Source of the DNA: Macrostomum hystrix
Taxonomy: Eukaryota > Animalia > Platyhelminthes
NCBI GenBank assembly: GCA_950097015.1
Contig: CATNEN010000002.1
Location: forward strand, 5,270,001 to 5,334,000
Direction of reading: 5' to 3'
Length of the DNA: 64,000 bases
Shown: positions 2,978 to 48,552 of the stretch, piece by piece
How positions within the stretch are numbered: the stretch's first letter is position 1
Layout: the number at the start of each line of letters is the position of its first letter
Made by a program: the position numbers and the translations under genes
Notes under the pieces: generated by a model
The model's database searches: none
Told to the model about the DNA's origin: nothing
Seen by the model: only the letters and a program-made list of their open reading frames with translations

Positions 2978-3379
2978 GTAAAAATGTAATTAACCGAATC
3001 ATTTTCTGAATTATTACCTTTTAGCAAATTGTGTTCTAGTGAAGTTGCAGTAACTAGCTAGTGTTTATTCTTTCATTCCGTGATATCAAAATATCGATTT
3101 TGCTGGGTTGCCGCTTCCTCTGCTGTGCGTGTCGCTAATTTGTGTTCATTTTCAAACAAGCATGTCCTTCAACTTATTGCGCCATTTGAAATGCCATGTG
3201 CCTATCAAGCGACTATAATGATCTATACTACTTGTGACTGAACAGTAGTATGTAAAATGCTGACAGCGCTGCCTCCGCGTGTACAGCGATGTTTTATTCC
3301 ACTTAACAGAAATTCACTTTCTGTTTTAAATAAAATAGTTGCTCTTGCTCTTTCATTTTCTTCACAATGCTGTTTAGGA

Positions 3380-7510: not shown

Positions 7511-7659
7511 GGGGACAATCAGACGACAGAATTTAAACAGATGCTGTCTACAGCGTGAAGTCCGAAAAATGTTTCTGCCAGTGTTGCTATGGCAACAAAA
7601 GTTCTCACATCGAGTCTGAGCCGAGGGTGTCCTTCACTGTTGCAGCTCGCGCAGGCACA

Positions 7660-26469
<18,810 letters not shown>

Positions 26470-27089
26470 TCGGTGATCATGTAAAAGTAACTGTTTTTTA
26501 CTGAAAGTTTTCCGAATTTTTTACTGTATTTATTCAATTGACGGCATTCTGGTTCGCTTACTCATTGAAAACAATGCTGTGTATAGGTGCTTGGGTTCAC
26601 CTGCTGTTTCGAAGAATGTCATCCTAACTTAACTTTAAGCCAAGTTATTGTCCTTATCAGGCTTGCTTTTTGCCACATGATGATGCACTTTTACAGCTGC
26701 TGCAAATGTGATATCGCTGCGAATGGCCATTTTAATTGAATTCGTTTTTTTGCTAGCATTATAATAAAATTGACATTTCAAGTTCAGATAGTGTTTTTTG
26801 TTGCCAAAACAATCGAGTAATATTTTCATTTTTATCAACTGTCCTCTGCCTTCGTCATTACGCGATGATTTCGTGTTATCGTAGAATACTGACTCCACTG
26901 AAATATGCTAACTTTGGCATCAAGGTCGAGAAGCACGTGACGATTTTGTGCGAATGCTGAATAGTGCCTCCACTAAGTTGTGCTATTTTTTGCATCAAGG
27001 TCAAGAAGCACGTGCCAATTGCGTGTGAACGCTGAATATTGACAGCACTGGGCAGTGCTATTTTTAGCATCAAGTTCAACCATACCCAA

Positions 27090-27319: not shown

Positions 27320-28055
27320 TGGGGAGTCATCATCAAATGAGGGATCATGGTCAACTGGGGGTTCATTGTCAACTGGGGATCATTGTCAAGTGGGGGATCA
27401 TTGTCAACTGGGGGATCATTGTTAACTGGGGGATCATGGTCAACTGGGGGCCCATTGTCAACTGGGGGATCATTATCAACTGGGTGATCATCATCAACTG
27501 GGGTATAATTGTCAACTGGGGGATCATTGTCAACTGGGGAATCATTGTCGACTGGGGGATCATTGTCGACTGGGGGATCATTGTCAACTGGGGGATCATT
27601 GTCAACTGGGGGATCATTGTCAACTGAGGAATCATTGTCGACTGGGGGATCATTTTCGACTGGGGGATCATTGTCAACTGGGGGATCATTGTCAACTGGG
27701 GGATCATCATCAATTGGGGGATCATTGTCAACTGGGAAGTCAACATCAAATGGGGGATCATGGTCAACTGGGGGGATCATTGTCAACTGGGGGATCATTG
27801 TCAACTGGGGGATCATGGTCAACGGGGGTGATCATTGTCAACTGGGGGAACATTGTCAACTGGGGATCATCATCAACGGGGAGTCATCGTCAAATGGGGG
27901 ATCATAGTCAACTGGGTGATCATCATCAACTGGGGGATCATCATCAACTGGGAGATCATGGTGAACTGTGGGATCATTGTAAACTGGGGGATCATCATCA
28001 ATTGGGGGATCATTGTCAACTGGGGAATCATTGTCAACTGAGGGATCATTGTAGC
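27320..28055. repeat. 18-nt G-rich minisatellite (GGGGGATCATTGTCAACT)
   Basis: Visible tandem units. Confidence 0.88.
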
Positions 28056-28927
28056 TTTAAAAAGCTGTAAATTCAGCTGCTAATAAGTATATACTAGACG
28101 AATTTAAAATATTTCTGCTCCCCGAAGGGGGGCAAAACTTGCTAGTTACGAGCTAAAATGGCCCTTAAAATCGCGCATACAACCAACGCTTTGTAGTTCA
28201 TGCAGATATTCAATGGTGTTTTAAACTAATTTTATGGCAGTGCCAGAACAACACAATCCAAGACTTAAAGCCAAAGCTTAACTCCTCAATAGCTCTGGTA
28301 GTCACTCTTGTTCAGTGACGATGCTCACTATCACCGAAGCGCTACACAATAGTCTACTCGCGTCTCCAGCTCAATCCGGAGCGCAGAAAAAACAATGGTC
28401 GTCAAGCTTCGTCAAGAAACTTCTAGAATCTGCCCCACAGCTGAGTGTACAGTCCAAATGAAAATGTTTATCCATAAGGAAAACTGTATAGAATAATCGA
28501 TTCTTTGAATTGACAAACCTAATAGACTCGGTCAGGTTTGAGGGGCTGGGAACTGGTAGCAATGAGCGATATTAAATTTGCCACCAACCCCCCTGAGCAA
28601 GGGCTATCAGCAAAAAAACATCTGCTCCATGCTCAGACCATGCTTCGACCCTGCCAACAATGAGTGGGCAGCCCAACAGTGCTTGGCGGTCCACTGTGCA
28701 GCTGATTTGGCTCATTGCTGCAGCCAGCATGAATTTGCCGGGAAGCTATTCAGCATAAAATAGCTGGATAGCCAAGCAGTCCAAACCTCGACTAAGGATT
28801 CTCTTCGACTGCTGAGTATAGAACACGATTTCCGCGGCGTTCGATACACGAGCTGAGAATCCTTGTTAGCTTTGAGCCTATTCTCAATTGCGTCGAAATT
28901 TGAACTGTTTTAATTATCACCTGGGCA

Positions 28928-31900
28928 ATGATGTTTGGCAGAGTGACCCTGTCATGCGGCCTGCTGCTGCTGCTGGCGGCCACAGGTCGAACCAGCCCCG
29001 TGGCCGATGGTGAGTGCTTGTCGAAACTATACATATGAGATAGCATATAGCATATGAGAACAGGCACATCAATTATTGACAGTGGACCACCAACCAGCAG
29101 CAACATGCAATTCCGCTATACCCACTGACTCCTGAGCGCACATGCCACAGATACTGTACGCTAGCTCACACTCACTCAGGTGTGTACATCTGCCCTGACT
29201 CTCTTATCGTCAGTCAGTGTTACACTTTCGCTTGGAGGTTGGCCCACAAATGAATGTGGCCTCGCCGCGGAATCGAGCTCAGAGTCTCAGTAGTCTCAGC
29301 AATTCAAAAAATTGTCAAGCGCTTCAGTAAAACTATAGGAGGGTGAAAACGGCCTAAAAATTATAGGTGTGATTTCTTCAATGAAATCCCATGAAATCTG
29401 ACTCTAATTTTTTGTTTAAACTGATTTCAGATGTCGAGACATCATATGTCACGGGTGAGTGAGTCTATCTAGTTTCGACTTGATCAGTAGGACTACCAAA
29501 CCATTTTGTGCCCGTTTTAATTACAAGGGAGGGATTTCCTCCCCCCAGAAAATATTTTACGCAGCGCCCGAATGCTAACTGCGTTGGGTGGTGACTGATT
29601 GGTTGACAGACTAGGCGATGGTGTCCTGTGGTTGAGCTGCGCCTAATATTTAGGCTTGAACAGTGAAATTGGAGAAATTCGCGTCAGGGTGTCCATAGTG
29701 GCCTATTTCCCCCCTGTTGTAGCCCTTGAAGGTTCAGCAGTCTGTCTAGATAAAAGTAGGTGACCACCGAAGACGGAGATGATGCAGGCACACTCGGGTG
29801 ACATGCTGATCAATTTTGAAGGCCTGGCAAGGCCGCACTGAGGCGCAGTGCAAATTTGTGCATAGGGGTGCATGAAATACACTAGCTCTTGTGGGAAATA
29901 TCTGACCTTCGGTTAGAACTGTTGAATATCTCGACGGTCAGAAGACCTGGTGATTTGATTACTGTTTCAGAAGATGCGCCACAAGAATGTGGCCCGTGTT
30001 GTTGAGTTTCGTGTGCTTGCGTTGCTACGTTCGCAAAAAAATCCGGTAGAACAGGTAGTTCTACTGTTAATACGAGCGTATTATTTTCTGTATAAAATAA
30101 ATATTCGTTGAACAATTTGTTTAGAACCGGAAGTCGTTGAGGAGAGGCCGGAAACTGTGGTGGACGAGAAGCCGGAGGTGAAAGAGGAGAATCTTCTCCT
30201 GCCGGAGGAAGAGACGGACAGCTCTGAGTCCGGCGAGGAGCTGGAAGACCCGAAGGGGACCTCGGAGGACCGTAAGTTTTGTTCGGCTCCGTTTAGTTCC
30301 GTTCTGAACTCGAAAAAGGATTTTTAACTGACAGAAACTCATTCCATGCAGTTGCCAAGCGGCTGGTCGTCGGTGGCGATGAAGGCTCCCTGCCGCCTCA
30401 GTTCAGAAGTGAGTTGATGGTGCAGTTATTCACCCAACAGTTCAAGCAACGAAAACTGACGACAGATTTGACAACACTGACTGACAACGAAAACTATTGA
30501 ACTTCCACCGCAACGCCTCCCCACAGAGATAGACTCTCTGTGCCTCATCTCTCCCGTGTCTCATCTCTCCCGTGTCTCATCTCTCATGTGCCTCATCTCT
30601 CCCGTGTCTCATCTCTCCACTGTCTCATCTCTCCCGTGTCTCATCTCTCATGTGCCTCATCTCTCCCGTGTCTCATCTCTCCCGTGTCTCATCTCTCCCG
30701 TGTCTTATCTCTCATGTGCCTCATCTCTCCCGCGTCTCATCTCTCCCATGTCTCATCTCCCCCGTGTCTCATCTCTCCCGTGTCTCATCTCTCCCGCGTC
30801 TCATCTATCCCGTGTCTCATCTCTACCGTGTCTCATCTCTCATGTGTCTCATCTCTCATGTGTCTCATCTCTACCGTGTCTCATCTCTCCCGTGTCTCAT
30901 CTCTACCGTGTCTCATCTCTCCCGTGTCTCATCTCTCCCGTGTCTCATCTCTCCCGTGTCTCATCTCTCCTGTTTCTCATCTCTCTTATATTGTAATTTT
31001 CAACGGATCAAAATTTTACTGTTTATTGTTGTTTTTGGACAATCTTTTAAATTAGATTAAACATGTAGTTAATATTTTACTAAGCAAGTAACTCGATTTT
31101 TCGTAATTTTCCAGATAAGCGCGGATATAGACGTCCCCCGATTGTTGGTGGAGATGTGCATTCACTGCCTCCAGGATACAGAAGTAATTTTTTTCTTATT
31201 TGCTCTACCAGAAACTTTGTTTGTAAGTAGCATAGAGACAATGTTCATGCGCAATTATTTTCAGAGATCTACATTAAATCGAAGACTGTCGGCGGACAGG
31301 TCAACCGCCCACTGCCCTACCGCCGTGAGTGAGATCATTTTTCCCATTTTTGCACTTTGAATGCAGCGTCAATACTACTATTAGTGGTCATTGGGTCTTC
31401 AACTAAACACAAAATAATATATTCCTAATGGTGAAGGATTTACTTAATGGTATTGATCAAGCATTAGCTGCATCCACACAGCCTTGCGAGTTAAGATCTA
31501 CGGTTGTACGAAGTCCACAATACCCGCGCTTCTGGTGGAGCTTGTAGCCTGATTCCTTTGGTTGGACACTACAGAAAAATAGTTACTCTACTCAGCAGAT
31601 CACCCTAAGGCCTCATGAAAATGCACCGATAGATGGCTTCATCGGCTGCTTCAAGGACAAGCGCTCAGACCGCGACCTGTTTAAGCTGGCGTACACTTCC
31701 AGCAGAAACACTGTTGACAAGTGCCGCAAGACCTGCGAGACACTGGGCTTCCACTACGCGGGCCTGCAGGGCGGTCGGCAATGCTTCTGCGGCAAGCGAT
31801 TCGGCACCCACGGCAGGGCCCAGTCCTGCAATCTGACCTGCTCAGGCAACAGGGCACAGAAATGCGGGGGCAGTCTGGCTAACAGTGTCTATCACAGCAG

Positions 31901-34900
31901 TGAGTTCATGCTCATGAACTGAATCGTCAAAACTGGTCAAAACTGGCATGCTGTGCTTCAGTCTCCTAGATTTCTTCCTCGTGCTCAATACACCGATTAA
32001 TTTTTTCCTTCTCTTGGTTCGGCAGACTTGTTAATATTATAAATAGTTTGCTAATTGATGGTGTTAGCAATGAGCACTTTGATCTCAATGTTGCAGGTGG
32101 TTTCCGCGCTGTCGGAGTTCACACCAGAATCGGCGGTAAGGGCCCGCTGCCACCGTGGTTTTCAAGTGAGTGCGATCCAGTTTTTGCGAAGTGTATTTAG
32201 AAACTTACTTCATGGACATTTCCAAGCAACTCAGCATTACAGGAAGCTAAAGATTTAGGCTTCATCAGGAATCAGGCCTTTAGAAATCTGAGCAATCTTT
32301 AGCAACAAGCTTTGAGCACTTTTTGGCTCTTAACAGTAGAAAGGGCACGCTATTTTCGCCCTGAGGAAAGACCCTGGGGAATTTCAAATAGCCACTGCCT
32401 ATACTTCCCCATAGCTCCCAAACCGAATCACCGACTTTCGTGAGAGTCCAACATATGCATCAACATTATCCGCCCTTAATTACGACGAACCAACTTTCAA
32501 AGCCGTCCGACGTCAGCATCGTCGAAATATTCAGAGATTCTTGTCGAAGACCCTGGTGACAAGGACAGCTAACATTTCTCTGTGCAAATCTATGGCGAAT
32601 CCGCGGCAATGTTCTACTTCCGTTCGTTATATTATTTTATTCGTTTGTATTCGTGCCACACGTGGATTCTGAGTTTGAAAAAAGTTGTGCTGACGTGGCT
32701 TTGCCGTGACTTGACACTTGGATCTATGTCTATGGCAAAATCTGGCAAATATGGGGGAACAGGAAGCTAAAGCGCAGAAATTCTGCAGCTGAAGATTTCG
32801 CGAAGGCCAAGCTGCGTCAAATGCATGGCACGAGTGCTGCTCTATTCGAAAGCCACCTCGAAGAATTCTTATGGCGCCGTCTATACCCCAAGAATAGCTT
32901 CGGTGCCCTCCTCTACTGGATTAGGCACTTACCCGGTTTGAGAGAAGAAAGACTGACCAAGACTTTTCAGAACTGTGTGACCAAACTACTGACTTTTTGC
33001 TACCGTTAAACTTGTTTTTTGTCGTTATCTGTCGTTTGCAAACAAAAAATAATATAACGAACGGAAGTACTCGTAGAACATTGCCAAATCCATTATTGGT
33101 TCAGCAATATAATAATTAGCAATAGTATCAACAGTAATAGCCGTCATGGTTGCATGATGACATTTTGTGAGTAGATAAGTTAGGCCTACATTGGTACTTT
33201 TGTCAATCGTTGAATCGTTGAATATTTCGAGGATGCCGATATTTTAGTGATTCTGGAAGCCGTTTCATCGGATAGAGCAGAACATTTTAGCCCGTGTTCT
33301 AAATTTTATGGCGATTGGTTGAATATTTTGTGGGATGCAGAAAAAGATAGGGGTATTTGAAATACCCCGCGGTCGTTTGTTCAAATCCAACCGGCTGTAA
33401 CGACGTCGCAATCGTCAATTTCACAATTCAGTCGGCAAGTCCAAGAACTCGCTGCCACCGCGCTACCGAGGTGAGACACGCGAACTAAATTGGTAAATAA
33501 GAATTGATAAGATTTAAGGATAGTCGCGAAGCTCAGCAAACGTACTTATATGAACCGCAGGAAAGCACTCCTTCAAGAAAATCCGCGTCGGAGGCGACAT
33601 CGGATCTCTGCCGCCGCAGTACAGGAGTGAGTCATACTACAAAAGCAGGTTTTCATACTTTACTAAGTATTATAACAAGTTTTTGAGGTTTAGCAACCAA
33701 TTAGATCTCCTAAACGACCTGCTACGTTTTTAATCGAATTACAGAGAAAAACAAGTTCATCCGAGTTGGAGGCGACATCGGATCTCTGCCGCCGCTGTAC
33801 AGGAGTAAGTCATACTACAAAAGCAGCTTTTCATACTTTACTAAGTATTATAACAAGTTTTTGAGGTTTAGCAACCAATTAGATCTCCTAAACGACCTGC
33901 TACGTTTTTTAATCGAATTACAGAGAAAAACAAGTTCATCCGCGTCGGAGGCGACATCGGATCTCTGCCGCCGCAGTACAGGAGTGAGTCATACTTAAAC
34001 AGTTGTTGTACTCAGTCACTTATGCTGTTTGTGATTGTTAATCCTTAAGGTTTTTGCAACCGGTTATACGAGCGTATTGTTCAATTACTTTCTGTTCAAT
34101 CGTGTTGCAGAGAAGCACAGGTTCATCCGAGTTGGAGGCGACATCGGATCTCTGCCGCCGCTGTACAGGAGTAAGTCATACTACAAAAGCAGCTTTTCAT
34201 ACTTTACTAAGTATTATAACAAGTTTTTGAGGTTTAGCAACCAATTAGATCTCCTAAACGACCTGCTACGTTTTTTAATCGAATTACAGAGAAAAACAAG
34301 TTCATCCGCGTCGGAGGCGACATCGGATCTCTGCCGCCGCAGTACAGGAGTGAGTCATACTTAAACAGTTGTTGTACTCAGTCACTTATGCTGTTTGTGA
34401 TTGTTAATCCATAAGGTTTTTGCAACCGGTTATATTGTTCAATTACTTTCTGTTCAATCGTGTTGCAGAGAAGCACAGGTTCATCCGAGTTGGAGGCGAC
34501 ATCGGATCTCTTCCACCCCAGTACAGGAGTGAGTCAGAAAACTCACTGAATGATTCATATATCTTGCAAGTTAAATTGTGCTGATGTCATAGCTCAGAAC
34601 GCAAAAAACGCGATTTCAGAGAAGCTCGTGTCACCACCAGGCTCCTCCAAGAGCTCCCTGCCACCTAAGTTCAGAAGTGAGTGAATTCCGCACCTTGATC
34701 CTAAACCCAACTCAATTCTTTTAATTTCTTCAAAACTTAAAGGGTAGCTTAATAAGTACCCTACCACTGTTAATAAAAACAGTAGAGTTAAAAAATTCCT
34801 TACTCAATCCATGTCGACTGCTAAAAAATAAATATAACAGTTCCAGGAGGGCTGCGGGCAATGGCACATCATTCGGTGACACTAGACCCGCAGCCAGCGA

Positions 34901-37900
34901 GGAGGCAATTCTGCCAATTCCGCTGACTCCTGAGCACACGTGCACACAGATACCGTACGCAGGCACACACTCACGCAGGTGTGTACATCTGCCCTGGCTT
35001 TTTCATCGTCAGGCAGTGTATACTTTCACTGTACTTTGGAGGTTGGCCCTCACGGGCGTAAATTGCACTACAGGCCCCCAAGCCTTCTCTCCGCGGCTGC
35101 GCCACAAACGAATGTCGTAGACGTAGATGCTGATGAATGCATTCAAGCCTCTAAGGGTCTGATAAGGCTCATGAAATTGTTCGACTTCCAGCTGGCAATT
35201 TTAAGGGGCCAAGCGTTCTACCAGGATCGACCGAGGGCTCCTTGCATCCGCGCTACCGCGGTGAGTGAGATGCGGCCTCCTGATCTTACCTCTTTGCTGC
35301 TCCTAAAGTTTGTAGATACAAAAACAACTCTAACTCGAGTCATTGGTTTTGCAGTTAACTTAAACCAAGGCTCCGATTAGCTTTGATTGCTAAAACATAA
35401 GAGCACAAATAACAAAGAGACACGTACTCACCTTGAACTGCAGGGAAGCTGCAAATTGTCAAGCACATCCGGGTCGGAGGCGACATCGGATCTCTGCCAC
35501 CGCAGTACAGGAGTGAGTCCTACTATGGTTGATACTCCGTCACATCATTCATGGTGTTATTTCTAGCTTTAGTTTATTACAGGGATAGTAAACGAAGATT
35601 CCCCTGTTTAATCACGTTGCAGAGAAGCACAAGTTTATCCGCATCGGTGGTCACAAGAGCGCCCTGCCGCCCAAGTTCAGAAGTGGGTACTTTTGGATTT
35701 GGACTGCTTTTTCACAATTTAGTTTAGCTCTTTTATGTATCCAAACTCTAAATGCATAACACATAAACTCAAGCGTTATGAGAAAACTAAAACTTCACAA
35801 ACTCCATACAACATGAGTAGCAGCTTTCTCGTGAATTCGTGGACAGGTAAATCCTAGAATAAAAGTGCATTGAGCGCGAAAATTGTTCCAAAATTTGTGG
35901 GCCCATAGAGTAGTTGCTCAAAAGACAAGCAGTCTCTCGCCTGGAGCCCTGTGTGGACAGATTAAAAATTGACGCTATCAACCAATGGGGCGGCTTGTAG
36001 CAACAGATAAGACTTGCATCCTGGAATGAAAGACTAAAATTTTGAATAAAAAATTATGACTTAACTTTTGATACCCAGTTGGCAAGTTGAAGAGGCCAAG
36101 TGTTCTACCAGGATCGACCAAGGGCTCATTGCATCCGCGCTACCGCGGTGAGTGAGAAGCAACCTGTCACTAAACATTTGCCTTATTTTACATTTTTAAT
36201 CCGTGAATTTATGGATTCGCTGATATATTCTATGACAAGTCGTGTCCTATAACTGAAAATTTTGTTTTAAAAAAAGTACAAAATCAACACACAAACCACA
36301 GGTAAGCACACTTTCAAGCACATCCGGGTCGGAGGCGACATCGGATCCCTGCCGCCTCAGTACAGGAGTGAGTCTTAGTTCATCTAGTTGTTGATACTCT
36401 GCAAAAAGTGCTTTTAAGGTTAACAGCCAATAACGACCAACAACCTGGGTGACTGGCAGAGCGGTTAACGCGTTTGCCCCTCGCACCAAGGTCCCTGAGC
36501 TCGATTACATGGCGAGGCCACATTCATTTGGGGTGCAGCCGCGGAGAGAAGGCTTGGGGGATTGTCGTGCAATTTACGCCCTCGAGGCCCAACCTCCAAT
36601 GTACAGTGAAAGTATACACTGCCTGATGATAAGAAAGGCAGGGCAGATGTACACACCTGCGTGAGTGTGTGCGTGCGTACATTCAGCGGAATGGGCAGAA
36701 TTGCCTCCTCGCTGGCTGCGGGTCTAGTGTCACCGAATGATGTGCCATTGCCCGCAGCCCTCCTGCAATTATTATTATTATTATTATTATTATCAATTAC
36801 AGAGAAAAACAAGTTCATCCGAGTTGGAGGCGACATCGGATCTCTTCCGCCGCAGTACAGGAGTGAGTCATACTTAAACAGTTGTTGTACTCAGTCACTT
36901 ATGCTGTTTGTGATTGTTAATCCATAAGGTTTTTGCAACCGGTTATATTGTTCAATTACTTTCTGTTCAATCGTGTTGCAGAGAAGCACAGGTTCATCCG
37001 AGTTGGAGGCGACATCGGATCTCTTCCACCCCAGTACAGGAGTGAGTCAAAAAACTCACTGAATGATTGATAATTATTGAAAATAAAACTATGCAGATGC
37101 CAGAATTGAAGACTCCAACATTTCAGAGAAGCTCGTGTCACCACCAGGCTCCTCCAAGAGCTCCCTGCCACCTAGGTTCAGAAGTGAGTGAATTCCGCAC
37201 CTTGATCCCTGTCTGATTGTTGACTAAGCCAATTCTCGACTACCTGTGGGACATATCTCTCTAATAGAAACATTAATTAAGATTCTATCTATGATGAGTT
37301 TGAACATGTTCTTGTGGTTAGACGTTATGGCTTCTATTGGTAAATGCTAGCCTCCAAGGAATTTTAAAAAGTTTATAAAAAATTGTTCGATTTCCAGTCA
37401 GGAAATTGAAGGGGCCAAGCGTTCTACCAGGATCGACCAAGGGCTCATTGCATCCGCGCTACCGAGGTGAGTGAGATGCAGCTTATTTATCTTACCTCTT
37501 TGCTGCACCTTGGGTTTCGATATTCATTTTGTTGCTGTCAAGACAAGTCCACGCTTCATTAACTCAAACCATTATTTATAAAAAAAACAAATCTCAGGAA
37601 AACACTCCTTTATGCACATCCGTGTCGGAGGTGACATCGGATCTCTGCCACCTCAGTACAGGAGTGAGTCATACTTGAAATGGATCATGTTTGAGAAGCA
37701 GCTGTTGATGCTCCATCACAGCGACAGCGAAGGTTATTGAAGCAGGGTTTGTTAACGAAGATTTTCCTGTTTAATATTGTTGCAGAGAAGCACAAGTTCA
37801 TCCGCATCGGTGGTCACAAGAGCGCCCTGCCGCCCCAATTCAGAAGTAAGAAAAGCTAATCACTGACCGAAAAATATTTACTTAAACTGTAATTGTGCCT

Positions 37901-40900
37901 ATGTCCTGACTTGGAGCCAAAAACACAATTTCAGAGAAGCTCGTGTCACCACCTGGCTCCTCCAAGAGTTCCCTGCCGCCTAGGTTCAGAAGTGAGCGGT
38001 TGCTCTGAATTAAAGTAATAATTTATATTTATATTGCCAAGGCCTTACTGAACTGGAAAGTGAATGTCAATGTAAGGCTCTAGAATAAGCCTGAGGTCAA
38101 TTCTCGAAACAAACCGACTGAACTCAGTAGCTGGTCGATACAATCGACAGGAAACGCCGAGGCATCTTCTTCCCATGGCGCCCTGGCGGAGGTTTGACCT
38201 GGACCTCCATTCTACTCGTAGAGCCTTAAGTTTGAATGTCCTTTGTTTTATTAGATTATAACTTCTGTGAAAATTATAATTTAAATGCACTTTCCTGCAC
38301 AAAAGCCTTGTTAAAAAATAGTTTTCTTAAAAAATTATGCTTGAATAAAGTTTTTTTGCTCTAGAAAAAACATAAGCAAAAACTGTTGCGTCCTAGATTT
38401 AGGAGTGAGTTCGCCTTGGCAATCATCTAGGCACATTTCAGCTGCACTCCAGTCAGCGACAATGCTTCTTGCAGGAGCCCTTGAAAATGAGAATTCGTTG
38501 GTACACCATTTCAGAGAAGCACAGGAAGGTCACGAGGCACATCCGGGTCGGAGGCAAGAGCTCCTTGCATCCTAGATTTAGGAGTGAGTTCGATTGGCAA
38601 TCATTGGCAGATCATAGCAAAAATGTCTTTCAATTATCCGTTTTCTATCGTAAGCAAGAACTTTTCGGTAAAGAAACTTCAGACTGGGCTGGTCAGTCAG
38701 ACTAAAACGGCAGGAAATTTACAATGCAATCGAAGAAAAAAGTTTCTTATTTAGACAAGACCGAATAGAAACGAGTTTTTAATGTGCAACGTAATTTTGA
38801 TTTACATTTTTTACTTTAAGTAACACAACTAAATTTTAACTGTCGCGTATAATTTCAAATTTCCCATCATATTTGGTTGCCCAATCACCTGATTCAATGT
38901 TACAAGCCCTTTGCACAGCTAATCCACAAAGCGACACCTGCTGATTTTACCTTTCAGACAAGCGCGGGCCAATTCTGGTTGGAGGAAGTGAGGGCTCCCT
39001 TCCACCACAGTACAGAAGTGAGTTTCCGAAATTTCCGAAAAATTCTCTGTTTTAGAAAGTACAACTAAAATGTTATCTTGAATGCGAATCACTTCAGAGA
39101 AAAATTGGAAGATCGTGAAGCACTTCAAGGTCGGAGGAAGTGAGGGCTCTCTGCCACCGCAGTACAGAAGTGAGTCGTTTTCGTATTCCCACTGCAATTT
39201 GATTTTAACGATTTGAAAAGCTGTAATAGTATATGATTATTTCTTAGGGGGCCGGTGGCAGAGCGGTTATCGCGTTTGCCTCTCGCACCAAGGTCCCTAA
39301 GTTCGATTCCGCGGCGAGGCCACATTTATTTGGGGCGCAGCCGCGCAGAGAAGGCTTGAGGGCTTGTCGTGCAATTTTACGCCCTTGAGGGCCAACCTCC
39401 AAGGCACAGTGAAGTGTACACTGTCTGACGATGACAAAGTCAGGGCATAGGTACACACCTGTGTGAGAATTGCCTCCTCGCTGGCTGCAGGTCTAGTGTC
39501 ACTAAGAGATGTGCCACTGCCCGCAGCCCTCCTGCAATTATTATTATTATTATTATTATGATTATTTCTTAAATGAAGAACTGAAATATTAGCCCAAATT
39601 CGACTTCGACTCACTTCAGAGAAAAACAGGAAGATCGTGAGGCACTTCAAGGTCGGAGGAAGTCAAGGCTCTCTGCCACCGCAGTACAGAAGTGAGATTT
39701 TTTAGATCTTTTTTAAATATACATGAAGACTGAAATGCAAAGTCGTTAACCTTGTTTCGCACGTGTTTATCAATCCAGAAAAGCACTTTTCGTTTGTGAG
39801 GCACTTCAAGGACGGAGGAAGTGAGGGCTCCCTTCCACCGCAGTACAGAAGTGAGTCGTTTTTTATTTCTAATTGCAATTTGATTTGAAAGATTCGAAAA
39901 GCGGCAATAATGTATGATTATTTTTCATGAAGTACTGAAATATTTCCCAAATTCTACTCACTTCAGAGAAGAACAGGAAGATCGTGAGGCACTTCACTGT
40001 CGGGGGAAGTGAGGGCTCTCTGCCACCGCAGTACAGAAGTGAGTCGTTTTAGTTTAAGGAATTATTTTTTACGAGAAAACTTGAAATATTTTATTTTATG
40101 CGACTCACTTCAGAGAAGAACAAGAAGATCGTGAGGCACTTCACGGTCGGAGGAAGTCAAGGCTCTCTGCCACCGCAGTACAGAAGTGAGTCGTTTTGTG
40201 ATCGTTGTATTCTTGCTACTTTTCGATATGAGCGCGCGATTCAAACTTTCTCAACAGAAAAGGAGTTGTTTACATTGAAAGCTATTTTTTCCTAAATCTG
40301 AATCATTTCAGAGAAGAACTGGAGGATCGTGAGACACTTCAAGGTCGGGGGAAGTGAGGGCTCTCTGCCACCTCAATACAGAAGTGAGTCTTTAGTTTAC
40401 TTACTGCATTTCCATTTGAACGATTTGTACAGTTGTACCAGTAGATTCTTGTTTTTGAAAAATAAAATATTATCTCGAAAACGAATCACTTCAGAGAAGA
40501 ACAGGAAGATCGTGAAGCATTTTAAGGTCGGGGGAAGTCAAGGCTCTCTGCCACCGCAGTACAGAAGTGAGATTTTATTTATTTTTCACACACACAACAC
40601 AGGAAGCCTGAAATTTAAATTTTAATGACCTTTCTCGCGTATTTATCAATCCAGAAAAGCACTTTTCGTTTGTGAGACACTTCAAGGTCGGAGGAAGTGA
40701 GGGCTCCCTGCCACCGCAGTACAGAAGTGAGTCGTTTCAAAACGTATAGTGTTCCAGCTGTATTCCAATTAAAACGGCGATCACAACAGTAGTATATTAT
40801 TTTTACATGCAAAGCAGAAAAGAGTTTCAAATACGACTCACTTCAGAGAAAAACAGGAAGATCGTGAGACACTTCAAGGTCGGAGGAAGTCAAGGCTCTC

Positions 40901-41471
40901 TGCCACCGCAGTACAGAAGTGAGTCGTTTTTTATTTCTAATTGCAATTTGATTTGAAAGATTCGAAAAGCGGAAATAATGTATGATTATTTTTCATGAAG
41001 TACTGAAATATTATCCCAAATTCTATACCCACTTCAGAGAAGAACAGGAAGATCGTGAGGCACATCACTGTCGGGGGAAGTGAGGGCTCTCTGCCACCGC
41101 AGTACAGAAGTGAGTCGTTATAGTATTTCGATTTTAGCAGTGACAACAGTTTAAGGAATTATTTTTTTTATAAAAACTGAAATATTATTTTTTATGCGAC
41201 TCACTTCAGAGAAGAATTTGAAGATCGTGAGGCACTTCAAGGTCGGAGGAAGTCAAGGCTCTCTGCCCCCGCAGTACAGAAGTGAGTTCATCTTGTTGGC
41301 GTTCTTTTAAGCAAATTTTTGAAGCACGCGATGTAAATACGAAATCTGACGAAAATGTCTTTACCTCAATAATATTCAGAACACCACATTGTGCTCAGCC
41401 ACGGACATAAATCTGTGAGACATCATGGAGTGAAGGCCGCTCCAGTTAGTCATCGACACACCACCAAGTAG
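28928..41471 (+). CDS. Secreted WSC-domain protein with 38 tandem micro-exon-encoded cationic Pro/Gly peptide repeats (putative polypeptide precursor), 43 exons
   Basis: Exons: 28928-29009 (signal peptide MMFGRVTLSCGLLLLLAATGRTS); 29431-29454; 30125-30271 (acidic); repeats 30352-30408, 31115-31183, 31265-31324; WSC 31633-31899; repeats 32097-32165, 33432-33470, 33561-33626, 33745-33804, 33924-33983, 34111-34170, 34290-34349, 34469-34528, 34620-34676, 35192-35260, 35444-35512, 35623-35682, 36079-36147, 36302-36367, 36803-36862, 36982-37041, 37127-37183, 37398-37466, 37598-37663, 37786-37845, 37935-37991, (38365-38404, 40 nt), 38515-38583, 38958-39017, 39098-39169, 39620-39691, 39779-39850, 39967-40038, 40114-40185, 40312-40383, 40495-40566, 40655-40726, 40847-40918, 41038-41109, 41210-41281; terminal 41380-41471 (TAG). 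Every exon has an AG acceptor and a GT donor (mostly GTGAG/GTAAG). All introns are phase 1 and internal exon lengths are multiples of 3 except the 40-nt one. Confidence 0.85.
29108..29285 (-). mobile_element. SINE family B partial copy in intron 1 of the micro-exon gene
   Basis: Reverse complement match to family B (ctgactcctgagc..caggtgtgtacatctgccctgac..ggaggttggccc..atgtggcctcgccgcggaatcgagctcag). Confidence 0.65.
30540..30990. repeat. 16-nt minisatellite (CCCGTGTCTCATCTCT); a related array lies at ~42400-42720
   Basis: Visible tandem units. Confidence 0.88.
31633..31899 (+). CDS. WSC (carbohydrate-binding) domain exon of the micro-exon gene
   Basis: GFIGCFKDKRSDRDLFKLAYTSSRNTVDKCRKTCETLGFHYAGLQGGRQCFCGKRFGTHGRAQSCNLTCSGNRAQKCGGSLANSVYH carries the WSC pattern GCF.D / C...C / YAGLQ.G.QCFCG / C...C.GN....CGG....SVY. 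The exon is 267 nt, phase 1-1. Confidence 0.88.
32790..32945 (+). mobile_element. Merlin/IS1595-like transposase C-terminal remnant
   Basis: Translates AKAKLRQMHGTSAALFESHLEEFLWRRLYPKNSFGALLYWIR, resembling the GT...F.SHL.EF.WRR C-terminal motif of Merlin transposases. No upstream catalytic ORF is seen. Confidence 0.45.
34843..35115 (-). mobile_element. SINE family B copy (lacking head), reverse orientation
   Basis: Reverse complement of the family B body (caggagggctgcgggcaatggcacatcattcggtgacactagacccgcagccagcgaggaggcaattctgcc...ggaggttggccc). Confidence 0.75.
36447..36792 (+). mobile_element. tRNA-derived SINE family B, full-length copy in a micro-exon gene intron
   Basis: 5' GG..TGGCAGAGCGGTTAACGCG (A box) and GAGCTCGATT.C (B box), a body shared with five other copies, a 3' hairpin GGCTGCGGGT..GCCCGCAGCC and a (TTA)n tail. 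Confidence 0.8.
39247..39557 (+). mobile_element. SINE family B copy with 14-bp target-site duplication
   Basis: Flanked by ATGATTATTTCTTA at 39233-39246 and 39558-39571. The paralogous intron near 39910 (tgtatgattatttttcatgaag) lacks the insert, i.e. an empty site. Confidence 0.85.
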
Positions 41472-41919
41472 ATGCAGGAAGCTGTGGTACGTACTCTTCA
41501 TTTTCAGTTTGAGTTTTTAGATTTTATAAACGATGGCACAATATAATCATAAATAAGTGATCTCCCATGCTTTGCAGCTTAATCAAATCAAGACTTCCAC
41601 ACTAGTGGAGTACAGTGGTCTCTGGAAGAATTTTACATACTGAAAAATAAAGTGATAATATGAAATCAATAAACAATTTTGTTTGTTTTCCTTTCGGTCC
41701 TTGCACTAAATTCAAATTCGCTGGTCTCTTAAGCAGAGTATTTTGGTGTTTTGAAGCTATTTTTTGTTTCGCAATAAATTGAAAGCTTAGAAATAAACTG
41801 ACCTAGTTACTCTGTACTTTTGGTTCTTGGTTGATCAATAAAATAAAGATTTTTTCATTTCTTCGATCGCTTTAGGATATCAAATATATTTTGAAGGCTT
41901 GTGCAGTGCAAGTCTAAAC

Positions 41920-42804
41920 CTGGGGTCGGTGGCAGAGCGGTTAACGCGTTGCCTCTCGCGCCAAGGTCCCTGAGCTCGATTCCGCGGCGAAGCCACATTT
42001 ATTTAGGGCGCAGCCGCGGAGAGAAGGCTTGGGGGGCTTGTCGTGGAATTTATGCACTTGAGGGCCAACCTCTGCACAGTGAAGTGTACACTGTACACTG
42101 CGTGACGATGAGAAAGTCAGGGCAGACGTACACCAGTGTGAGCGTGTGCCTGCGTACAGTATCTGTGTCGTGTGTGCTCAGGAGACAGCGGAATGGGCAG
42201 AATTTCCACCTCGCTGGCCGCGGGTCTAGTGTCACCAAATGATGTGCCACTGACTGCAGCGCTCCTGCAATTATTATCATTATTATTAAGGTTCGGTCCT
42301 CGTCCAGATGCGGCCCTCGAAGCTCCTAAATCCGGCCCGCTACCAGTTCCTACACCTACAGTGTGCTGTAGCATATTTCCTCTGTCGCGTCTCTCCGGCG
42401 TCTACCTCTCCCCTGTATCGTCTCTCCCATGTCTCATCTATCCCGTGTATCGTCTCTTGCATGTCTCATCTATCCCGTGTATCGTCTCTTGCATGTCTCA
42501 TCTATCCCCTGTATCGTCTCTTGCGTGTCTCATCTATCCCGTGTATCGTCTCTTGCATGTCTCATCTATCCCGTGTATCGTCTCTCCCATGTCTCATCTA
42601 TCCCGTGTATCGTCTCTCCCATGTATTATCTTTCCCCTCTCTAATCTCTCTATTGTCTTAACTATCCCGTGTCTCATCTCTCCCTTGTCTCGGCTCTCCC
42701 ATGTCTCATCTCTCCCGTCTCATATTTCTACAGTCAATGCGGCCCGCTGTCATCTGATAGGTTCTCTCTTTGGCCCGCTAGCTAATAAGTTTGCCGAACC
42801 CTTG
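41920..42804. mobile_element. Non-autonomous hAT (Charlie-like) element with nested SINE and internal 16-nt satellite
   Basis: Right end AAGTTTGCCGAACCCTTG (reverse complement CAAGGGTTCGGCAAACTT). The left end C[SINE]AAGGTTCGG is restored when the SINE is removed. 8-bp flanks GTCTAAAC (41912-41919) and GTCTAGAC (42805-42812); subterminal GGCCCGC motifs. Confidence 0.55.
41921..42287 (+). mobile_element. SINE family B copy, inserted into the left end of a hAT-type MITE
   Basis: Same head, body and tail as 36447-36792. Confidence 0.78.
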
Positions 42805-43318
42805 GTCTAGACTATGTGCAAGTTTAAGGTGAAATTAATCGCACTAATAATGTAAAAAATAATGTGAAAATAAGAAAAAGAAATACTTTTTTGTGTTAGA
42901 GCCCATTTGGAACAAACGAAGTCTACAGCTATCGATTTTGACAATCGCCTAATTTAGAAGACTTGTTTATTTATCTGATTCTAATCTAAACAGTTAAGCA
43001 TAAGCTTGCTACTTATTTTCGAGTATATCTTTTAAAGATAGATATATTGACGGGGCTAAGGGGTAAAACGGGGTTACACCTTCCGGGTTCTCGAGTGACT
43101 TATGATGAGCAAAAACGACAATAATATGCGTTCAAATGGAGCAAGGACAGGTGTGATACATGCCAAGATTGTATTGTTGTTATTCTATGAGCTGGAGTCC
43201 ATTGAAAACACACTGATCTATGAGTGGCATCTAATATGTATATATAGTGTGTGTGTATTAGTGCAAACAAACCAACTGTTGTCAAACCTCTAGTCTTAGA
43301 ACAATCGGCCGAAAAAGA

Positions 43319-46300
43319 TCAGTAAGCCCTAATCTTCGGGGGCACAGTCGGGCAGTCCTTCTGGTCCAGAGTCTTGTCAATGACCGGGCGATACTCCAGG
43401 CTTACTTTGCCAGTGGCGGCGTCCATGAAGCACAGGGTGTGCTTGCGCCAGTGCTGCTCGTATGGTCGCTTAGTCTGGCCATCGATGGGCTTAGTGTAGT
43501 CGTATTCGTCGATGCGATCCTTGAAGTCTTCGCGAGCGTGCGCACCGCGCGACTCCTTGCGAGCTTCGGCAGCGTACACGGTCTGGGGTGAAGGGTTCCG
43601 GGTGTAGGATGCAGGGTTTCGTATGTAGGGTGCAGGGTTCCGGGTGTAGGATGCAGGGTTTCGTATGTAGGGTGCAGGGTTCCGGGTGTAGGATGCAGGG
43701 TTTCGTATGTAGGGTGCAGGGTTTCGTATGTAGGGTGCAGGGTTTCGGATGTAGGGTGCAGGGTTCCGGTTTTCGGATTTAGGGTGCAGGGTTCCGGATG
43801 TAGGGTGCCGGTTTTCGGATTTAGGGTGCAGGGTTTTTCATGTTGGGTGCAGGGTTCCGGATGTAGGTTGCATGGTTTTAGAGGGAGGGCAAAGGGATTC
43901 GGAGCAGGGTGAAAGGTTTCGGATGTAGGGTGCAGGATTTCGGAGGTAGGGTGCCGGTTTTCGGATGTAGGGTGCAGGGTTCCGGATGTAGGGTGCAGGG
44001 TTCCGGATGTAGAGTGCAGGGTTCCGGATGTAGGGTGCAGGGTTCCGGATGTAGGGTGCAGGGTTCCGGATGTAGGGTGCAGGGTTTCGGATGTAGGGTG
44101 CCGATTTTCGGAAGTAGGGTTTCGAAATGTAGGGTTTTAAAGGTAGGTTCCAGAGTTATAGAGCTAGGGTGCAGGGTTTCGGATGTGGGGTGCGGGTTTT
44201 CAGAGGTAGGGTGCGGCTTTTCGGAGGTAGGGTGCAGGGTTCTAGATTTAGAGTGCAGGGTTCCGGGTGTGGGGTGCGGGTTTTCAGAGGTAGGGTGCGG
44301 CTTTTCGGAGGTAGGGTGCAGGGTTCTAGATTTAGAGTGCAGGGTTCCGGATGTAGAGTGCAGGGTTCCGGATGTAGAGTGCAGGGTTCCGGATGTAGAG
44401 TGCAGGGTTCCGGATGTAGGGTGCAGGGTTCCGGATGTAGAGTGCAGGGTTCGGGATGTAGGGTGCAGGGTTCCGGATGTAGGGTGCAGGGTTCCGGATG
44501 TAAGGGTGCAGGGTTCCGGATGTAGAGTGCAGGGTTCCGGATGTAGGGTGCAGGGTTCCGGATGTAGAGTGCAGGGTTCCGGATGTAGAGTGCAGGGTTC
44601 CGGATGTAGAGTGCAGGGTTCCGGATGTAGAGTGCAGGGTTCCGGATGTAGGGTGCAGGGTTCCGGATGTAGGGTGCAGGGTTCCGGATGTAAGGGTGCA
44701 GGGTTCCGGATGTAGAGTGCAGGGTTCCGGATGTAAGGGTGCAGGGTTCCGGGTGTAGGGTGCAGGGTTCCGGATGTAAGGGTGCAGGGTTCCGGATGTA
44801 GAGTGCAGGGTTCCGGATGTAGAGTGCAGGGTTCCGGATGTAAGGATGTAAGGCGGATAAATAAGAGTTTAAAAAGCCACAAACCTGCCCAGCATTCAGC
44901 ATGAGGTTCTGCAGTTCCAGAGTCTCAACCAAGTCCGAATTCCAGATCAGGCTCCGGTCCGTGACCTTCAGATCGTCCATCCGTTTGTAGACTTCGTCGA
45001 ACTCTCGGCAGCCGCGCAGCAGCGTCGGGCCGTCGCGGAAAACGGCGGCGTTGCGCTGCATGGCCTTCTGCAGGTCCAGCCGCAGCTCGGCGGTCGGCGT
45101 GCCGCCTTTGGCGTTACGCAGACGGTCGATGTTGGCCACGGAGGCTTCGCCGGAATCCTTGCGCAGCGGCGCCTGGGACTCGCCGGGCCGGTTCTCCTTG
45201 GCGATGGTGTGGGCGCAGGCGCGACCGAACACCACCAGGTCAAGAAGGGAGTTGGCGCCAAGCCTGTTGGCTCCGTGCACAGACACGCAGGCAGCCTCGC
45301 CAGCCGCGTACAGGCCTGGAATCACCACGTCCGAGCCGGTCTTCGGGTCGTAGGTAATGGCCTGCCGTTGAGGAATGCGTTTGGATGGGTGGTGTTCAGA
45401 AGCAATATCAAAATCTCACCTCATTCTACAGAATAGCTGCTTTAAAATCTTCAAAAGCTTAAAAATATTATTCAGTTCTACAGTATAGCTAATTTAAAAT
45501 CTTATCCCATAGTTGATTTAAAATCCCACCCTATAGCTAATTCAAAATCTCACACCATAGCTACTTTAAATCTCACACCATAGCTACTTTTAATCTCACC
45601 CCATAGCTACATCAAAATCTCACCATAGCTGATTCAAAATCTCACCATAGCTGATTCAAAATCTCATCCCATAGCTGATTCAAAATCTCATCCCATAGCT
45701 GATTCAAAATCTCACCATAGCTACATCAAAATCTCATCCCATAGCTGATTCAAAATCTCACCATGGCTACATCAAAATCTCATCCCATAGCTGATTCAAA
45801 ATCTCACCATAGCTGATTCAAAATCTCACCATAGCTACTTCAAAATCTCCCACAAAGCTACTTCAAAGTCTCACTCAAAGCTACTTTAACATCTCACCCA
45901 AAACTAATTCAAAATCTCACCATAGCTACTTCAAAATCTCCCACAAAGCTACTTCAAAGTCTCACTCAAAGCTACTTTAACATCTCACCCAAAACTAATT
46001 CAAAATCTCATCCCATAGCTACTTCAAAATCTCACCCAAAGTTAACTCAAAATCTCACTTATAGCTACGCTCGTATTTCAAAATTTTACCCCATAGCAAT
46101 TTCAAAATATAATCCCATGGCTATAATCTCAAAACATTCCATTTTTCAAAATTTCACTAGGATTCGCAGACCTAAGCAACGATGCGCATGCAAAGCCTCA
46201 CCTGGCCACGCCAGTTAGTGGGCACACCGCCCATGTTGTAGTGCACAGTGGGCAGTACAGGAATCGGTTCGCGAGTAACGTCAACTCCGGCAAAGATGTG

Positions 46301-48552
46301 AGCAGTCTCAGAGATGCCAGGCAAGCGGCTGCGCAGCTGCTCAGGTGGCAGGTGGTGCAGCTGCAGGAAGATGTGATCCTTTTCCTTGCCAACTCCGCGG
46401 CCCTCCCTAATCTCGATGGTCATGGCCCGAGAGACCACGTCGCGACTAGCCAGATCTTTGGCTACCGGCGCATATCGCTCCATGAATCTTTCACCTTCGC
46501 TGTTGACCAGATAGCCGCCCTCGCCGCGGCAGCCCTCGGTGATGAGACACCCAGCGCCATAGATGCCAGTGGGATGGAACTGGACAAATTCCATGTCCTG
46601 ATTAGGCAGGCCAGCGCGGCTTACCATGGCTGTGCCATCGCCAGTGCAGGTGTGAGCCGAGGTGCATGAGAAGTAGCACCGGCCATAGCCGCTGTGATTG
46701 GAGAAAATTATTTAGTAAGGAAAGAAATGACAACTGGACCAGATGTACAAGCAGTAGCATTGTACATATAAGGATATAACTAAATGATCAACTCTCAAAA
46801 ATGTACATTATTTGCACATCTTTATTATATTGTTACAACTACTTTTTGCAGATTTTAGAATGATAACTGAAAACAATGATCATACTCAAGTTATAATTTA
46901 TAGCTAACTATTATTGATCATTAATGGATTTAAGAAATACATGAGCCATAAAAATATAAAAATTGCAACTCATTAATCTGAAGGTAGCTTGTTGGTTATT
47001 TTAAGAATAGATAAGTATGTTTACTAGCTTACTAGCTAAAGTAAATAAAATAAATTCAGTTAATAACATAAAACTAGCCAAATACCAAAAAGTATTGAAT
47101 AAGCTAAAATAAATTAGTCCAATAATGATTTTAATTGCTGTTTTGTTATTAAAGGGTTCTATAAATTTAATGAAAAGCATTTTATTAAAGTATTCGAGAC
47201 CATAATAAGAGTTCATATGCCTTGATTTACATTTTTTGCATTTGAAATGAACTATTTATATAATGACATATAATTTAAAGTTTTTTATAGAAAGGCTTTA
47301 GCTATTGCTGCCTTTTAATCAGATACAATAGTGAAAAAAACATTGATTCAACCTGAACTTAATGTTAGCCTATCTATAGGCCTACCAATTGGCCAACTGA
47401 TTGTTTACCATATAGTTCAAATAGACAGTTACTGTCACTTTATAAAGATAACTAGTCTACCAAACACAACATTTTACTTTAGAGAGGTTATTGCTTCACA
47501 ACAATGAATAAAATAATATTTAATTCATTGGAACAACTAGTATACTGAAACATTATGTACACAAATGACAATTTTTAAAGTATTTCATATTTTTATAGTA
47601 TTTGTCATGACATTAATATAATATTTTATTGTTGTACATTAAGTAGTATAGGCCTATATGTAGCAATCATGAGCTATTTTAATGCAGAATAGGCCCCTAA
47701 TCACTTAAAAAATAGACTGCCTTGCTACCTAAATAAAAGATGTCTAGATTATATTTCAGTAGCAAATATTAGTAGATAGTAGCAAAAAGTGAGAAAATAA
47801 GCCTGAACAATATAATGACAAAATATAACTCCACTCCAGTTCACTCACCCTGTTGCTAGAACTGTATTCTTAGACTGAAACCTATGAAGAGTGCCATCTT
47901 CCAGGTTCAATGCAATAACACCCTTGCAAATGCCATCTTCGTAGAGGATGTCCAGGGCAAAGTACTCAACAAAATAGTCACAACCATACTTCAAGGACCT
48001 GCCATAGAGGGTGTGCAGCATAGAGTGGCCTGTTCGATCTGCCACTGCGCAGCAGCGATGTGCCTGGCCTCCTCTGCCATAGTCAATACTCTGGCCACCG
48101 AATGCACGCTGATAGATCTTGCCATTCTCCAGCCGACTAAATGGCATGCCATAGTTCTCCAGCTCAATCACAGCTTTTGGTGCTTGCTCGCACATGTAGT
48201 GAATTGCATCCTGATCACCAAGCCAATCTGAGCCCTTCACAGTGTCGTACATGTGGAATCGCCAGTCATCGGGCTCCATATTACCCAAGGCAGCATTAAT
48301 TCCACCTTGGGCGGCGACGGTGTGCGAACGCGTAGGAAAAAGTTTGGTTATGCAGGCTGTCTTGAAGCCTTCGTTGGCGAGTCCGAAAGCAGCTCGCAAG
48401 CCGGCGCCACCTGCGCCAACAACAACAGCATCGTAAACATGGTCAATTACAGGGTACTGCGAGGTTATTGAACTTGTGGTCGCATTGCGATGCAAGCGCT
48501 GGTTAAAGCCAGCAACATTGCGTAGTCTGGCAAGCCGCCCTAACTTCAGCAT
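43319..48552 (-). CDS. SDHA: Succinate dehydrogenase flavoprotein subunit, mitochondrial, 644 aa, 4 exons
   Basis: Exons (-) 48552-47849, 46691-46202, 45361-44885, 43582-43319; phases are compatible. Basic N-terminal transit peptide; [11 protein letters not shown]; FAD-His motif [12 protein letters not shown]; FVQFHPTG; [11 protein letters not shown]; [14 protein letters not shown]; [15 protein letters not shown]; ends PPKIRAY*. Confidence 0.97.
43588..44850. repeat. 21-nt minisatellite (GGGTGCAGGGTTCCGGATGTA) filling SDHA intron 3
   Basis: Visible tandem units between SDHA exons 3 and 4. Confidence 0.92.
45500..46130. repeat. 22/24-nt degenerate satellite (CCATAGCTGATTCAAAATCTCA) in SDHA intron 2
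   Basis: Visible tandem units. Confidence 0.8.

Follow-up and report, generated by a model that had tools for sequence, protein, structure and literature searches.

A one-unit-per-exon repeat array resembling calpastatin subdomain B in a predicted secreted protein of the flatworm Macrostomum hystrix

A stretch of 64,000 nucleotides (nt) of the Macrostomum hystrix genome (assembly GCA_950097015.1, contig CATNEN010000002.1, positions 5,270,001 to 5,334,000 of the forward strand; hereafter the window, with coordinates counted from its first letter) carries on its plus strand a gene whose predicted product combines 37 short repeats with a single WSC domain. The gene is real, expressed, and conserved, and its WSC exon is optional. 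According to the best reading of the sequence, the product would be calpastatin-B-like in action, yet no member of the calpastatin family, from which it is set apart because subdomains A and C are missing and because it appears to be secreted. Overall, it is probably a secreted, multivalent, calpastatin-B-like calpain inhibitor, likely processed by convertases and provided with an optional glycan anchor.

The gene model was built by reading positions 28000 to 42500 and scoring donor and acceptor sites. It extends from the ATG at 28928 to the stop codon at 41469-41471 and comprises 42 coding exons with a total of 3012 nt, specifying 1003 residues with zero internal stops; all 41 coding introns are of the GT..AG type and of phase 1, and the length of each of the 40 internal exons is a multiple of three. 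Exon 1 (28928..29009) supplies the ATG and a predicted signal peptide within 27 codons, corresponding to the single hydrophobic stretch of the model protein (residues 6 to 19, by hydropathy only). It is followed by a symmetric 24-nt exon (exon 2, 29431..29454, placed by splice signals only), an acidic, Glu-rich pro-piece (exon 3, 30125..30271; residues 27 to 85, net charge of -20) that ends in EDL/AKR, the slash denoting a splice joint and the AKR site lying in exon 4, three repeat exons, the WSC exon (exon 7, 31633..31899), 34 further repeat exons, and a His-rich, basic tail. The WSC exon matches Pfam PF01822 over the full profile (E value of 1.7e-19; 70.2 bits against a cutoff of 27.8) and encodes eight cysteines; the repeats, each encoded by 39 to 72 nt, are Cys-free. 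The repeat units have net charges of +1 to +9 and an isoelectric point of 11.2, while the model protein as a whole has a net charge of +168, 65% disorder-promoting residues, and 9.3% proline. No further occurrence of the repeat motif was found in the rest of the window, and Rfam and tRNA scans of positions 28000 to 43000 gave zero matches. Most of this layout had been proposed in an earlier sequence-only reading and was recovered when the gene was rebuilt, i.e., the signal peptide at ATG 28928, the 24-nt exon, the Glu-rich exon ending in EDL/AKR, the WSC exon, repeat exons of 39 to 72 nt, phase-1 introns and symmetric exons throughout, and a protein of about 1000 residues. The repeat array it described is real, but its count of 38 repeat exons is not: 37 are in frame, with 34 instead of 35 located after the WSC exon, probably because a 40-nt repeat look-alike (38365..38404), which is out of frame, contains an in-frame stop, and is skipped in the transcript contigs described below, had been counted in.

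The conserved tail of the repeats, [VI]-G-x4-S-L-P-P-x-[YF]-R, corresponds, position by position, to the motif of calpastatin subdomain B, L-G-x4-T-[IL]-P-P-x-Y-R. Inhibitory subdomain B has been printed as KLGERDDTIPPKYQ, as TIPPXYR, and, for CAST1, as TLPPKYK (PMC4057710, PMC6271145; both bovine papers report modelling based on structure 3BOW). The repeat consensus, V-G-G-[SD]-x-G-S-L-P-P-Q-Y-R, aligns to subdomain B without gaps, the motif positions being identical or conservatively replaced and the divergence being confined to the four looped-out residues. This four-residue loop register is kept in 34 of the 37 repeats, the skipped exon 29 (see below) being one of the three short-register units; loop length is reported to be crucial for inhibition by calpastatin (PMC7863939). 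The relaxed pattern [LVI]G-x4-[TS][IL]PP-x-[YF][RQK] occurs in 25 of the 37 repeats and in 0 of 740,000 shuffles, and, when a profile was derived from the repeats alone, the bovine motif scored higher than every one of 35,335 background 13-mers (P of about 3e-6). In Pfam, Calpain_inhib (PF00748) was the sole family matched by the repeats, with E values of 0.077 for a single repeat and 0.0035 for a two-repeat stretch, and the matches, like that of the Paramecium protein described below, fall at approximately positions 91 to 126 of the 130-position profile, with a span of 92 to 116 for the repeat units. The likeness of the tail to calpastatin subdomain B points to calpain inhibition. The sequence-only reading had not recognized the family; the repeats indeed have no Pfam match above the cutoff, but a calpastatin-like tail had not been considered there. 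Likenesses to the IVGG N-terminus of trypsin, the Bowman-Birk loop, and the LVGG of cystatin were set aside, as each covers only 3 to 5 residues.

A complex model was computed for the 34-residue peptide of exon 31 with residues 32 to 520 of a Macrostomum lignano calpain (P0100), which was taken from the homolog list of a classical calpain found by a metagenome pattern scan, and with two calcium ions. The complex scored 0.84 in three runs, compared to 0.15 for the best of 3 controls; the score mark is reached by 51 of 78 solved pairs versus 2 of 108 mismatched ones, and for eukaryotes by 71 of 105 solved versus 2 of 126 unrelated pairs. Contacts agreed to at least 95%, with predicted local distance difference test (pLDDT) values of 70 to 72 for the partner. 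In the model, V17-G18 is placed on C106, H264, G263, G199-G200, and A265 of calpain, L24 on E102-L103, and P25 on W294 and Q100, with further contacts in domain III, and these contacts correspond to those published for Leu679, Ile686, and Pro687-688 of calpastatin. The peptide is predicted to take the calpastatin-B pose across the catalytic Cys and His residues; the likeness is one of pose, and inhibition is a prediction drawn from it.

Relatives were found in the same genus. A 22-position profile of the repeats, run against 1.84 billion representative sequences, gave four matches, of which P0003 and P0005 were rejected as chance. The M. lignano protein A0A1I8IUW5 (P0004) and its three cluster mates in UniRef, A0A1I8JK32 (P0006), A0A1I8JLP8 (P0007), and A0A1I8JIW0 (P0008), show E values of about 1e-17 to the model protein in pairwise blastp and share with it a signal-like stretch, an acidic piece, basic arms, and ...GGSESSLPPQF repeats; the acidic piece of exon 3 has a weak likeness to that of P0007. 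They differ in possessing only one or two full motifs and no WSC domain, they are known from proteins alone, and their automatic names (KI67, BLVR) are uninformative. P0006 lacks one whole 23-residue unit present in P0007, with the upstream junction residue kept, which fits the skipping or loss of a phase-1 exon. Outside the flatworms, Paramecium sonneborni CAD8062986.1 (P0002) combines a signal-like N-terminus with three copies of the motif in residues 354 to 413 at a period of 23 to 24 residues, which equals that of the flatworm array, the best copy being VGGDQNSLPPQYR. Its sole Pfam match is Calpain_inhib (E value of 0.0076, below the 22-bit cutoff), and about 0.07 exact matches of this kind would be expected by chance in the library under assumed residue frequencies. 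Unlike the flatworm array, P0002 has acidic spacers and a long attached body, which we take to be trichocyst-matrix-like, with no such match in Pfam. As an independent parallel, its motif array is suggestive only. A word-index alignment of the repeats matched 0 of 7991 candidates and missed even P0004, so that this search is insensitive; the WSC exon, searched among longer proteins, gave one match in 8 candidates, an oyster protein, and an ESM Atlas search with P0007 (best value, 0.80) gave no usable match.

Several observations weigh against a calpastatin-like function. The relaxed pattern was chosen after the fact (V or I for L, S for T, F for Y), the exact L...T form is present in 0 of 37 repeats, the four loop residues differ, and 12 of the 37 repeats fail even the relaxed pattern, 6 of these with Pro in the L position. 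All Calpain_inhib scores are below the 22-bit cutoff (best, 18.3 bits for the two-repeat stretch), none of 32 single repeats (27 to 28 residues) passed the HMMER filter for this family, the paralogs P0004, P0006, P0007, and P0008 have no Calpain_inhib match, and sequence searches of the PDB returned neither calpastatin chains nor anything else relevant. The repeat units, at 13 to 24 residues, lack subdomains A and C, by which affinity is increased in calpastatin. As for the complex model, like calpain-calpastatin complexes have been solved (3BOW, 3DF0), so its passing score may be memory; furthermore, peptides lie outside the calibration, alignments were unused, and intron read-through accounts for 11 of the 34 residues in the modelled peptide. 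Finally, classical calpains are mostly cytosolic, so that a secreted inhibitor would have to reach its target by a route that is unproven.

Expression and splicing were assessed with contigs of five public sequencing runs (X1 to X5) from two studies. None of the runs is on record as RNA; the spliced GT..AG joints themselves served as evidence. Among the joints listed, at least 16 of the 41 predicted coding junctions were present, confirming the earlier expectation of spliced transcripts joining these exons. The aligned parts of the contigs start downstream of exons 1 to 3. Before exon 5, a loose end in X4, X5, and X3 equals the final 30 nt of exon 4 (junction 4-5), and the X3 contig has 280 nt upstream of exon 5, where the model predicts 310 nt between the ATG and this exon. 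The joint skipping the WSC exon (31324>32097) was found in four of four runs (X4, X5, X1, and X3) and the inclusion joints in two of four (X4 and X5), with a WSC piece also in X2. Contig depths were 29 and 18 for the included and 121 and 89 for the skipped form, which suggests that the WSC-containing form is the minor one, although contig depth is no basis for ranking the parts of a gene. The joint 37991>38958, by which both exon 29 and the 40-nt look-alike are skipped, was present in X4, X5, and X1, i.e., in three of four runs; one X1 contig covers exon 29 with a 6-nt gap. Thus, in-frame skipping as such is observed for the WSC exon and exon 29, while the free skipping of any subset of exons envisaged in the sequence-only reading was unseen among the joints listed. 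A further joint in X4, 34528>37127, was dropped as skipping evidence; it is ambiguous because exons 15 and 23 are identical. The five runs are filed under three organism codes, and the exon sequences are identical or near-identical in the pieces shown.

The repeats are under purifying, not diversifying, selection. Within the six exon classes, exon identity is 0.86 to 0.95, whereas that of flanking introns is 0.39 to 0.75 (random, 0.45), and the pairwise ratio of nonsynonymous to synonymous substitution rates (dN/dS) is 0.11 to 0.47 in all six classes, the pairs sharing history and not being independent. The coding selection against a background of drifting introns that had been proposed is borne out by these values. 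The array grew by duplication of single exons and of blocks, with the peptide kept: exons 10 to 20 contain a recent 366-nt tandem duplication, the copies of which are 96 to 98% identical (copy number as assembled), and the block of exons 21 to 28 is related to that of exons 10 to 20. An exon tree groups the exon classes but, owing to long-branch warnings, was not used for the order of events. The earlier picture of a secreted polyprotein with one peptide per exon, enlarged by exon duplication, is supported.

If the product acts as proposed, the signal peptide would route the precursor to secretory granules, where the acidic pro-piece may offset the basic repeats. Basic sites are formed across splice joints, with R/KK at 24 of the 35 adjacent repeat joints (YR/KK, 22; FR/KK, 2) in addition to the first AKR site; YR/GK is found at 4. 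Convertases would cut at these sites and release units of 13 to 24 residues, the alternative being an uncut multivalent chain. According to the prediction, each of the 37 repeats would lie over the active site of calpain activated by calcium and block the enzyme: V-G would be placed beside the catalytic Cys and His, four residues would loop away, S-L-P-P would pack against the primed side, and domain III would accommodate the basic arm. The WSC isoform would tether the inhibitor to glycans. The least certain steps concern the target, which might be a calpain outside cells, either at a surface or released from wounds into high-calcium water, or one reached via the basic arms, which may carry units into cells, and its owner, which could be the worm itself, a mate, prey, or a predator. 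Schistosomes are reported to expose active extracellular calpain that calpastatin blocks, and injured cells to release calpain (PMC5635006); a secreted calpastatin has been reported in bone (PMC10003151). By our judgement, two sites of action lead: surface or gland defence has about an even chance, and a role in seminal fluid, somewhat doubtful, is kept open because many prostate transcripts of M. lignano encode WSC proteins. WSC is annotated in at least 13 of 76 listed prostate-limited (Mlig-pro) transcripts, as counted by eye (PMC5977470); these proteins are likewise secreted and of the same genus, whereas here WSC is a skippable cassette, the comparison being by names only.

Compared to calpastatin (PF00748, MEROPS I27), the gene product likewise consists of repeated units in a likely disordered chain and has the same predicted pose on calpain. 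Calpastatin has four inhibitory domains, each of the A-B-C type, and is cytosolic without a signal peptide, whereas here 37 B-only units of 13 to 24 residues are strongly basic and encoded one per phase-1 exon in an invertebrate, with an optional WSC domain and a likely signal peptide, the N-terminal hydrophobic stretch (by hydropathy) being present in the paralogs as well. Calpastatin is described as absent from Caenorhabditis elegans and Drosophila (PMC3315469, PMC3771957). Among the top open-access results, neither this gene nor any secreted calpastatin-like array from an invertebrate was described, a pairing of Macrostomum with calpastatin not having been searched. With the micro-exon genes (MEGs) of schistosomes, the gene shares its flatworm origin, a secreted product, small symmetric exons, and alternative splicing, exons of up to 72 nt holding 80% and those of up to 36 nt 0.8% of the coding sequence; no MEG was matched in the profile search. 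Here, unlike in MEGs, each exon is a complete copy of one motif, and dN/dS is low, whereas raised dN/dS is reported for MEGs from a comparison of orthologs and paralogous genes (PMC4350168). In view of this purifying selection, the earlier proposal of a MEG-like, diversifying library of antimicrobial, toxin, or adhesive peptides is not supported in that form.

Part of the evidence can be read differently. The honey bee apidaecin gene also has a conserved N-terminus followed by one secreted peptide per exon (PMC1847501) and shares the variable exon number, and an apidaecin-style precursor of cationic antimicrobial peptides, with an incidental calpastatin likeness, would account for the acidic pro-piece, the basic processing sites, and the charge and isoelectric point of the units; the WSC domain could aim at microbial glycans. 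Such a precursor is nevertheless unlikely, since conservation lies in the weakly charged tail of each unit and not in the variable basic arm, P0002 has the same tail with acidic spacers, and the four-residue register and the calpain model are left unexplained. Moreover, apidaecins are proline-rich and highly variable, whereas the units here are conserved in a protein with a modest proline content; no apidaecin was matched in the repeat alignment or the profile search. In a second role, the basic arms could still act against microbes.

A structural secretion, such as mucus, an adhesive, rhabdites, or the matrix of a copulatory plug, in which the basic chain binds polyanions or is cross-linked via Lys, Gln, or Tyr, would agree with a repetitive, Cys-free, highly charged, and disorder-prone protein bearing an optional glycan-binding domain. 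It is improbable: an exact 13-residue register in every exon is no requirement for structural repeats, Gln is variable (23 of 37 repeats), and the basic sites suggest cleavage. The units might instead inhibit, or act as decoys for, a papain-clan cysteine protease other than calpain, e.g., a cathepsin-like enzyme of prey, predator, or microbe. Such proteases are extracellular or lysosomal and would thus be easier to reach, and the score of the complex model cannot tell which family member is bound; this reading is very improbable all the same, calpastatin being described as highly selective for calpains (PMC7863939) and the modelled arm making use of calpain domain III. We give the least credence to a precursor of neuropeptide- or pheromone-like signalling peptides, or of cell-entering PPxY decoys for WW-domain proteins. 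The prepro layout is classic, the four R/GK joints are possible amidation signals, and PPxY occurs in 25 of 37 units, yet most units lack the amidation Gly, PPxY accounts for only 4 of 13 conserved positions, Phe replaces Tyr in 8 units, and a WSC domain would be unusual in a neuropeptide precursor.

The remaining features of the gene, all on the plus strand, are as follows. Repeat exons 4 (30352-30408), 5 (31115-31183), and 6 (31265-31324) precede the WSC exon; they are supported by the model and, for joints 4-5 (the loose end) and 5-6, by contigs. Exons 8 (32097-32165; divergent, with a three-residue loop) and 9 (33432-33470) are supported by model and contigs and are followed by exons 10 to 15 (33561-33626, 33745-33804, 33924-33983, 34111-34170, 34290-34349, and 34469-34528), 16 to 20 (34620-34676, 35192-35260, 35444-35512, 35623-35682, and 36079-36147), and 21 to 28 (36302-36367, 36803-36862, 36982-37041, 37127-37183, 37398-37466, 37598-37663, 37786-37845, and 37935-37991). 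Exon 29 (38515..38583) is in frame and has a three-residue loop. Downstream lie exons 30 to 35 (38958-39017, 39098-39169, 39620-39691, 39779-39850, 39967-40038, and 40114-40185) and 36 to 41 (40312-40383, 40495-40566, 40655-40726, 40847-40918, 41038-41109, and 41210-41281); eleven of exons 30 to 41 measure 72 nt. Exon 42 (41380..41486) encodes the His-rich, basic C-terminal peptide and includes the stop codon and the start of the 3′ untranslated region. It is the last coding exon, as had been proposed, but probably not the terminal one: donor and acceptor signals indicate an intron of the 3′ untranslated region at 41487-41577, 15 nt past the stop codon, and a presumable non-coding last exon at 41578..41745, X5 contig 32 covering 41577-41745 from contig position 151.

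Four copies of an element of about 300 nt that resembles a short interspersed nuclear element and ends in an ATT microsatellite were noted, three in introns of the gene (~34834-35120 on the minus strand, 36454-36798, and 39250-39570) and one just downstream (~41920-42285); they have no Rfam or tRNA match, and in X4 and X5 their contig depths add up to hundreds to thousands. Intron 8 (~32400-33300) contains a dispersed repeat that has numerous divergent matches in each of the runs compared. The neighbouring genes, whose introns are full of minisatellites, are unrelated to the repeat-array gene and appear to be a KIAA0319-like gene (~370-2980, plus strand; PKD match), a DNA polymerase B family gene, presumably REV3-like (~7540-26470, plus strand), and a succinate dehydrogenase A gene (~43320-48630, minus strand; FAD_binding_2 match).

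In textbooks, the specific protein inhibitor of calpains is calpastatin, known as a cytosolic protein of vertebrates. Tentatively, and with more doubt than confidence, calpastatin-B arrays may be a recurrent secreted tool of eukaryotes, with separate origins in a flatworm gland product and a secreted Paramecium protein, for shutting down the calpain of another organism, flatworm splicing switching between free and glycan-anchored forms. If the proposed function is true, the array would be an unexpected use of the calpastatin inhibitor motif in an invertebrate secretion and would provide a short calpain-inhibitor peptide in about 30 natural variants tested by selection. A secreted, 37-valent, B-only flatworm version would show calpain inhibition outside cells or between animals and would reopen the question of how invertebrates restrain their classical calpains.

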